Below are positions 19,651 through 21,501 of a stretch of DNA of 55,013 bases, in pieces. The notes under the pieces are model-generated. The model was given only the letters and a program-made list of their open reading frames with translations. It was not told the DNA's origin and ran no database searches. This stretch comes from a virus (taxonomy: Duplodnaviria; Heunggongvirae; Uroviricota; Caudoviricetes). The position numbers were made by a program, and so were the translations under genes. Position 1 is the stretch's first letter. Each line of letters starts with the position of its first letter. The DNA is taken from IMG/VR virus record IMGVR_UViG_2880412407_000004; one strand, 5' to 3'.

Positions 19651-21501
19651 ATGTCGATTAAACATTACGATGTTGTCAGGGCGGCGTCGCCGTCAGACCT
19701 TGCGGAAAAGCTGACACACAAACTGAAAGAGGGCTGGCAGCCATACGGCGGACCGGTTGCCATTACGCCGTACACACTGATGCAGGCGGTGGCTATTGAA
19801 GGAGAGCCACAGGTCGGCCCTTCATCTGAGCCGGATTGGTACTACGTCATCGTACTGGCCGGGCAGTCCAATGCCATGGCTTACGGTGAAGGGCTTCCGC
19901 TGCCGGATTCATACGATGCTCCGGATCCGCGCATTAAACAGCTGGCGCGCCGCAGTACAGTGACGCCGGGCGGGGCTGCCTGCAGATATAACGATATTAT
20001 TCCGGCTGACCACTGTCTGCATGATGTGCAGGATATGAGTACGCTGAATCATCCGAGGGCTGACCTGAGCAAAGGGCAGTACGGCTGTGTCGGCCAGGGT
20101 TTACATATTGCCAAAAAACTGCTCCCGTATATCCCGAATAACGCGGGGATCCTGCTGGTACCATGCTGTCGTGGTGGTTCGGCATTTACCTAGGGCGCGG
20201 AGGGGACATTCAGCGAGTCCACGGGGGCCAGTCAGGATTCGGCACGCTGGGGGGTGGGCAAGCCGTTATATCAGGATCTGATTTCCCGCACAAAAGCGGC
20301 ATTGCAGAAAAATCCCAAAAACGTTCTGCTGGCCGTCTGCTGGATGCAGGGTGAGTTTGACATGAGCGCCGCCACCCACGCACAGCAACCTGCGCTGTTT
20401 ACAGCCATGCTGACACAGTTTCGTGCTGACCTCTCCGTGTTTAACGCGCAGTGCCATGGTGGCAGTGCTGCAGATGTGCCGTGGATTTGTGGTGACACGA
20501 CGTATTACTGGAAAAATACATACGCTACCCAGTACGACACCGTGTACGGCGGGTATAAAAACAGGGAGAGTGAGGGCGTTTATTTTGTGCCCTTCATGAC
20601 AGACGGTAACGGCGTCAATACCGCCACTAACGCGCCGGCAGAAGATCCGGATATTCCGGCATCAGGATATTACGGTGCGGCATCGAGAACGAATGGAAAC
20701 CAGGTATCATCAAACCGCCCGACACATTTCAGTTCATGGGCGCGCAGGAGCATTATTCCGGATCGTCTGGCAACCGCTATTCTGAACGCAGCCGGGCGCA
20801 CCTCAGCCTTCATCAGTGGTAAGGCACCGGAAATCAAACCCTCGCCCGGCGGCAACACGCCATCGGGTCCGTCTGCAGATACGTCCGTTCGCACAATCTC
20901 CCTGCTGCCGGCAGCCGGAGAGGCTGCTGCGCAGGGCTGGAGCATTAAGGATGGCGGAATTCAGTTGTCAGATGGTGTATTTAAGATCACCAAGCAGAGC
21001 AATAAAACCTGGTCCCTGACGCATCCGGTGGATGACGCAATTACCCTGCTGACACAGGGCGGCAGACTGACCTGTAAGTTCCGCCTGTCAGGCGCACTGA
21101 CCAACAATCAGTTCGGGCTGGGGATTTATCTGTATACGGATTCTCCCGTTCCTGATGGTGTGGCGATGACGGGTACCGGTAATCCGTTCCTGATGTCGTA
21201 CTTCACTCAGACCACTGACGGCAGAGTGAATCTGATGCATCACAGGAAAGCCGGAAACACGAAGCTGGGGGAGTTCGGCGATTACGGTAACGACTGGCAG
21301 ACGCTGGAGCTGGTGTTCACCGCCGGCAGTGCCACGGTTACTCCGAAACTGAATGGAGTGGCTGGCCCGGCATTCCAGGTTATAAAAGACAGTCTGACAC
21401 TGGGACTGAATGCGCTGACGCTGACGGATGTTACAAAAAATGCAGCGTATGGCGTTGAGATAGAAAGTCTGATGCTGGAGATAAATGCACCGGCAGCATA
21501 A
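19651..21501 (+). pseudogene. nanS-p: NanS-p-like sialate O-acetylesterase (DUF1737 plus SGNH/SASA domain) interrupted by an in-frame amber codon
   Basis: Two co-frame ORFs (19651..20193 and 20254..21501) separated only by TAG at 20191-20193; GQSNA esterase motif; resembles the Stx-phage gene found downstream of stx. Confidence 0.75.

Follow-up and report, generated by a model that had tools for sequence, protein, structure and literature searches.

The 55,013-nucleotide stretch of DNA recorded in IMG/VR as IMGVR_UViG_2880412407_000004 (hereafter the window, meaning the whole of that stretch) carries a gene for a nanS-p-type esterase, an enzyme that de-acetylates mucin sugars, and its reading frame is broken by an in-frame amber codon. 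The question raised by this locus is whether the stop is a genuine lesion that silences the esterase or, alternatively, a boundary between two genes, an assembly error or a codon that the host reads through. We are confident, short of certainty, that this nanS-p paralogue is a pseudogene, recently inactivated by a nonsense mutation that is fixed in its lineage, and that it resides in a non-Stx, lambda/434-like prophage of Escherichia coli O121:H19 lineage L1. As such, it is an ordinary pseudogene: the gene family, where it sits, how many copies it has and how such a mutation arises were all established before, and the lesion has already been flagged by the NCBI annotation.

Translation of positions 19651-21501 gives 617 codons with a single internal stop, codon 181, in the context ...GCA TTT ACC TAG GGC GCG..., and the open reading frame (ORF) that follows the stop shares its frame with the one that precedes it, although some annotators list the downstream 415-residue ORF as a separate hypothetical protein (BCS60301.1). 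Homology to the chromosomal esterase NanS (PDB 3pt5, E=1e-122) extends without a gap over residues 60-379, that is, across the stop, which argues for a point nonsense change within one gene rather than a chance ORF boundary or two neighbouring genes. The closest intact allele, found in strain EC20017429, differs from the window only at positions 20191 and 21142, and from the TAG allele of strain 2002-3211 only at 20191. The gene of phage 434, CPT_434_71 (UMO75335.1, 'SASA family carbohydrate esterase'), is of equal length and identical at 1846 of 1851 nt (99.7%); the five differences include 20191, which is C in phage 434 (CAG) and T in the window (TAG). The homologue in the Stx1 phage Stx1_14040 likewise has CAG at this codon. 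Alignment with intact nanS-p homologues thus identifies CAG (Gln181) as the ancestral codon, even though the residue itself is not conserved, being Thr in the Stx2a-phage paralogue and Ala in NanS. A natural boundary between two genes can be rejected, as phage 434, Stx1 phages and hundreds of genomes all have a single continuous gene of 616 codons at this place. The gene of phage 2B8 is also split, albeit by a different lesion, an insertion of ~127 nt. Accordingly, the preliminary description of this locus, which had interpreted TAG as a nonsense substitution splitting a nanS-p-like gene where homologues read through, was correct on all three counts.

To locate domains, we analysed the protein with the stop read as Gln. 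The features of the NanS-p family are present, namely an N-terminal DUF1737 domain, a NanS-like SASA/SGNH domain with catalytic Ser and His (PF03629, residues 66-262 by Pfam) and a C-terminal lectin-like jelly-roll, to which the structure of a NanS-p C-terminal domain (PDB 6yp6) aligns over residues 421-613 (E=5e-30). This three-part architecture has been described for prophage NanS-p esterases (PMC10462455, PMC8065619) and is shared with those of Stx phages (933W z1466/L0105; phi24B vb_24B_21/gp84; PDB 6yp6), which similarly lie just upstream of the lysis genes and occur in multiple copies in the genomes of E. coli that produce Shiga toxin (STEC). Also typical of the family is the place of the gene among the late genes of a lambdoid prophage, between the antiterminator Q and the lysis cassette. 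By contrast, the uninterrupted frame expected of an active Neu5,9Ac2 esterase is missing, and the gene would be a pseudogene member of the NanS-p family. The chromosomal 9-O-acetyl-N-acetylneuraminate esterase NanS (YjhS) aligns with the catalytic domain, and its catalytic residues, Ser19 and His301 (PMC9063846), correspond to Ser73 and His359 here; unlike the prophage gene product, NanS has neither a DUF1737 nor a lectin-like domain and is not carried by a phage. The stop had been thought to separate the DUF1737 part from the esterase part. Instead, it lies inside the SASA/SGNH domain, ~115 residues in, and parts Ser73 from His359 (Table 1).

Table 1. Coordinates of the features discussed (window positions unless a locus is named).
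Feature	Position	Strand	Details
Disrupted nanS-p-type gene (DUF1737 + SASA/SGNH esterase + lectin-like DUF6645 domain)	19651-21501	+	617 codons
Shine-Dalgarno-like GGAGA	19640-19644	+	6 nt 5' of ATG 19651; a ribosome-binding site is annotated here in phage 434
N-terminal ORF, 180 aa	19651-20193	+	ATG 19651; DUF1737 and first ~115 SGNH residues
DUF1737 (PF08410)	19660-19797	+	residues 4-49, E=2e-15; whole, 5' of the stop
Ser73 codon, GQSN motif	19867-19869	+	aligned with NanS nucleophile Ser19; upstream of the stop
Former Dcm methylation site	20190-20194	.	CCAGG in intact alleles, CTAGG here
Amber TAG	20191-20193	+	codon 181; ancestral codon CAG (Gln)
Residual in-frame ORF, 415 aa from GTG	20254-21501	+	second half of SGNH and lectin-like domain
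His359 codon	20725-20727	+	aligned with NanS catalytic His301; downstream of the stop
DUF6645 (PF20350), lectin-like jelly-roll	21049-21381	+	residues 467-577
IS66-family element	~21760-24500		tnpA 21792-22523 region, tnpB 22520-22867, tnpC 22887-24443; between esterase and holin
Mosaic and paralogue loci of strain 16-9255	L014 (1452-3302), L015 (3072-4922)		window 20100-21142

The site of the stop is a Dcm motif, and Dcm motifs constitute the main class of nanopore consensus substitution errors under default basecaller models (PMC6591954). Furthermore, the window, which shares 99.8% identity with a prophage of E. coli O121:H19 strain FWSEC0006, shows seven single-base homopolymer deletions relative to the latter. 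The TAG could accordingly be suspected of being a nanopore miscall at a methylated CCAGG in an error-prone assembly. However, a search of 5,426 complete E. coli genomes in RefSeq with an exact 63-mer centred on the codon recovered the TAG version in seven independent genomes (2014C-4423, 2014C-3599, 2014C-3655, 2015C-3107, FWSEC0006, 2002-3211 and GTVSS-020); the CAG version matched 667 records. Five of the seven carriers have been placed in O121:H19 lineage L1 (Nishida et al., PMC8767318); of the other two, GTVSS-020 is labelled O121 and the serotype of 2002-3211 was not checked. In FWSEC0006 and 2002-3211, the RefSeq Prokaryotic Genome Annotation Pipeline (PGAP) marks the identical stretch as pseudo, with an 'internal stop'. 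The exact 180-residue product has been deposited for strains 51104 and E15042, and TAG lies in the contig interior in E15042, which was read directly, as well as in draft contigs from other projects (L026, L028 and L029). The 180-residue protein is listed on 75 contigs, a figure that is inflated as a number of carriers, given that at least one of them (L030) is a contig-end partial sequence reading CA at the site; for this reason, only contigs with TAG in their interior were relied on. In addition, across the 37 kb compared, no mismatch to FWSEC0006 falls on any of the 77 remaining Dcm sites, and no protein combining Q181 with the lineage-specific S498 (see below) was found in a collection of 15 billion proteins. 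On this cross-assembly evidence we reject a Dcm-associated miscall, to which we assign next to no probability: the artefact is effectively refuted and the allele genuine. The preliminary description had considered the lesion more likely real since it is a substitution, and had named CAG in place of TAG as what would overturn it. The lesion is indeed real, on the strength of the independent assemblies, and the other assemblies of the lineage show TAG; but inferring reality from the substitution class is unsafe at a Dcm motif.

The order of events can be read from position 21142. The TAG alleles of 2002-3211 and E15042 have G there, whereas the window and six other genomes combine TAG with T (A498S), the sole further change that followed the stop. 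This distribution indicates that the stop arose first and predates A498S, and that the pseudogene is young.

Normal termination at codon 181 would yield a product of 180 residues and nothing else, comprising DUF1737 and part of the SGNH fold with Ser73. Because it would end before His359 and have neither the remainder of the fold nor the lectin-like domain, this product is predicted not to be an esterase; the consequence of the allele is read from its sequence, and from it we infer the loss of activity. Re-initiation also seems unlikely because the first in-frame start after the stop, GTG 20254, is directly abutted by a G-run without any spacer and has no credible ribosome-binding site; no start codon follows the Shine-Dalgarno-like GGAGG at 20199-20203 at a distance of 5-10 nt, and any re-initiated product would be without Ser73. 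The truncation might nevertheless leave or create a function, with the 180-residue fragment acting through DUF1737, which lies whole upstream of the stop, or with the 415-residue ORF, which retains the lectin-like domain, serving as a carbohydrate-binding protein. A preprint on phage phi24B assigns the DUF1737 domain, following proteolytic processing, to capsid-binding decoration. Yet the phi24B capsid is that of a T=9 podovirus, whereas the present prophage has lambda-type head genes; the downstream ORF is not preceded by a ribosome-binding site; ~115 residues of an incomplete alpha/beta fold are likely to misfold; and the prophage has decayed elsewhere too, with IS66 separating the esterase gene from the holin gene, a frameshift in rha and genes that are only partial. 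A residual function is therefore very unlikely.

With respect to the origin of the stop, position 20191, where the mutation fell, corresponds to the inner cytosine of CCAGG, the one that Dcm methylates. A single C-to-T transition would have converted Gln181 to amber, with 5-methylcytosine at the Dcm site deaminated to thymine and escaping very-short-patch repair. The setting is the one expected for such an event: the ancestral motif is CC(A/T)GG with an internal C-to-T change, and O121:H19 FWSEC0006 encodes intact, annotated dcm (full length, 1419 nt) and vsr. With the stop reverted, a nonsense codon could enter the gene through 198 different single-base changes, 47 of which are C>T or G>A; five of the 198 (5 of the 47) are deaminations of Dcm 5-methylcytosine, and the observed change is among those five. 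The same chemistry and sequence underlie the amber hotspots of lacI, where the second cytosine in CCAGG mutates and CAG turns into TAG (Coulondre et al. 1978, cited through PMC12606429) and where 5-methylcytosine sites are ~10-fold overrepresented among amber and ochre sites. Since the changed base is the internal Dcm cytosine, deamination of 5-methylcytosine, the mechanism of the lacI hotspots, is the most likely, though putative, origin. The lacI hotspots were defined by many laboratory mutants, whereas here there is a single natural event and the mechanism is deduced. As a separate observation, the window contains 15 CTAG tetranucleotides, where its base composition would predict ~213; the amber mutation produced one of the 15. 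Avoidance of CTAG is known for E. coli.

Two groups of points weigh against the reading proposed here. The first concerns the Dcm origin, which rests on one event, whereas C-to-T transitions are common anyway; with 5 of the 47 possible stop-making transitions at Dcm sites, the chance expectation among transitions is ~0.1, and the methylation of the site is itself presumed, so that the match is suggestive rather than probative. The lesion could hence be real and its position at a Dcm site coincidental, the product of an ordinary replication error or of deamination of an unmethylated cytosine. The overrepresentation of methylated sites in lacI, the presence of dcm in the host and the exact hotspot signature, CAG to TAG at the second C of CCAGG, speak against coincidence, which we regard as possible but the less probable account.

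The second group concerns suppression. In suppressor-free E. coli, near-cognate tRNA-Gln decodes UAG and inserts Gln. Low-level read-through would consequently restore the wild-type protein, and the allele is probably leaky rather than strictly null; moreover, with residue 181 varying to Thr or Ala in relatives, almost any inserted residue would presumably be tolerated. The preliminary description had stated that the esterase would be inactive unless suppressed, and a full-length product indeed appears impossible to obtain from this sequence by any other route; it had also proposed checking the host for amber suppressors. The check covered three loci that can become suppressors by one base change, with leuX and trpT outside it. 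In FWSEC0006, glnV and glnX have the CTG anticodon and serU has CGA, so that neither supE nor supD is present, and a supF-type tRNA-Tyr was found in none of the 5,426 genomes; as a positive control of the identity-band method, the supE query recovered 155 records, the listed examples of which are laboratory strains. The window contains no tRNA genes; in the two further prophage regions of these strains that were examined, the tRNAs have CAT, TCG and TCT anticodons (Met/Ile-type and Arg), none being a suppressor. We therefore reject supE, supF, supD and prophage-encoded suppressor tRNAs for the loci and prophage regions examined, and only trace near-cognate read-through would be expected. Furthermore, a programmed read-through site should show a stop conserved among homologues, whereas TAG is confined to seven records of one clonal lineage against 667 for CAG, the opposite of a conserved recoding site. 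That a suppressor tRNA or a leaky context delivers useful amounts of full-length esterase is, on this balance, highly improbable. Combining the two ideas, one may picture a two-product gene that makes abundant 180-residue DUF1737 protein along with traces of wild-type esterase by read-through, so that the enzyme is retuned rather than lost; we consider this an extremely unlikely variant. The nonsense pseudogene remains our preferred interpretation.

The window represents a whole lambdoid prophage, from the integrase end (position 1) to a cargo region of type III secretion system (T3SS) effectors. In FWSEC0006, the gene order is Q, a membrane protein, DUF3927/TciB, esterase, IS66 (tnpA-B-C), class II holin and lysozyme, and the pseudogene would thus be seated in the late region between Q and the holin, with IS66 interposed. 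The late region of phage 434, a non-Stx lambdoid phage, has a matching order, with Q, a membrane protein and TciB/DUF3927 upstream of the esterase and a class II holin and a signal-arrest-release (SAR) endolysin downstream; it differs in having an intact gene and no IS66 between esterase and holin. The locus had been attributed to an Stx phage. This attribution does not hold: in Stx-converting phages stxAB lies between Q and nanS-p, usually after tRNA genes, whereas here the membrane protein and DUF3927/TciB occupy that interval, the 99.8%-identical prophage of FWSEC0006 has no annotated stx and the window is devoid of tRNA genes. The gene content accordingly points to a non-Stx, lambda/434-like prophage.

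Over 40.5 kb aligned, the window and FWSEC0006 differ by one IS3 insertion site, the seven homopolymer deletions, two single-base insertions and a variant block. The deletions affect G/C runs at 28116, 28442, 31823, 34992, 35797, 35906 and 38291, in terminase, portal, head and tail genes, and a single-base insertion is found in a poly-G tract at 17290; these differences in run length resemble homopolymer errors of long-read sequencing, and the genes carrying them would seem frameshifted. The block at 27747-28416, in the region of the terminase small and large subunits, has ~45 mismatches in otherwise nearly identical surroundings, which suggests a patch acquired by recombination or an assembly into which a paralogue was mixed. 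The IS3-family insertion that FWSEC0006 carries in the early region (window 4058-4071) is missing from the window, and the window's tail-fibre/effector region is longer by ~1.26 kb (48808-50072). According to the FWSEC0006 annotation, positions 50072-55013 hold T3SS effector cargo (NleG-family/DUF1076 genes, EspW and a bfpT-regulated chaperone). The integrase end of the FWSEC0006 prophage abuts torS and its tail/effector end abuts potB (L007, L008). Given that torS and potB are ~128 kb apart in K-12, these flanks imply an inversion or recombination between two prophages, and the element may be a hybrid.

The disrupted gene is not the only one of its kind in its hosts. In O121 genomes, 8-9 places match the esterase gene; the CAG 63-mer did not reach these other paralogues, which differ elsewhere in the 63-mer, and they were reached instead through stx2 and through the patch in strain 16-9255 described below. 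For instance, elsewhere in the FWSEC0006 chromosome, an Stx2a prophage carries tRNAs, stx2AB and then an intact nanS-p of 645 codons, the length of the Stx2a-phage NanS-p reported for strain 2015C-3107 (PMC10462455 Table 2). This Stx2a-linked copy has 54% protein identity to the gene studied here, which, unlike the NanS-p genes of Stx phages, has 616 rather than 645 codons, does not neighbour stx and is truncated and presumably inactive. A second paralogue, of 616 codons, was read intact in 16-9255, and a copy of this donor type is annotated as an ordinary coding sequence in three O121 genomes. Several nanS-p alleles of a single strain have each been found to be active (PMC8065619). With intact paralogues retained elsewhere among the prophages of these genomes, losing the present copy probably carries little fitness cost. 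The same gene has also been disrupted independently, by insertion of IS3-family elements in a number of STEC genomes whose serotypes were not checked and by the insertion in phage 2B8 mentioned above (L003, 1501-3478), and this recurrence fits weak selection on any single nanS-p copy.

The junction between the esterase gene and IS66 occurs in exactly eight complete genomes, seven of which are known to be O121 and one of which is 2002-3211. The one among the eight that does not have the stop, O121:H19 strain 16-9255, carries this prophage with an intact esterase gene. This gene is a mosaic: all 38 informative sites in 19668-20061 are of the window type; all 27 in 20100-21142, including CAG, match the 616-codon paralogue located in another prophage of the same genome; and site 21472 is again of the window type. 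Over the other 5.3 kb of the 7.2 kb that were compared, 16-9255 does not differ from the window. A 301-mer of the donor sequence is present at 100% identity in four TAG-carrying genomes among the matches listed. Because 16-9255 is listed in L1 alongside the TAG carriers (PMC8767318), its intact state is probably derived, through either gene-conversion repair or an assembly artefact. The assembly is a Unicycler hybrid of MiSeq and Oxford Nanopore Technologies (ONT) reads (PMC5786694), and we see roughly even chances that the paralogue in the other prophage erased the stop through gene conversion over 1 kb or more or that the mosaic was created during assembly. The same mosaic protein is encoded in unrelated contigs by alleles with 5-6 synonymous differences, suggesting that the shuffling of alleles among nanS-p copies is common.

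For E. coli O121:H19, these observations mean that one of several redundant nanS-p copies is off in L1, and counts of sialic-acid foraging genes should subtract this copy. The T at 20191 provides a clean clonal marker of the torS-side prophage of L1. At a more general level, genuine deamination of 5-methylcytosine and nanopore miscalls at Dcm sites strike the same base in the same motif, and CCWGG substitutions in long-read assemblies therefore need orthogonal support before being either accepted or dismissed. Finally, the mosaic gene of 16-9255, if true, would be a natural example of prophage paralogues repairing each other's pseudogenes.

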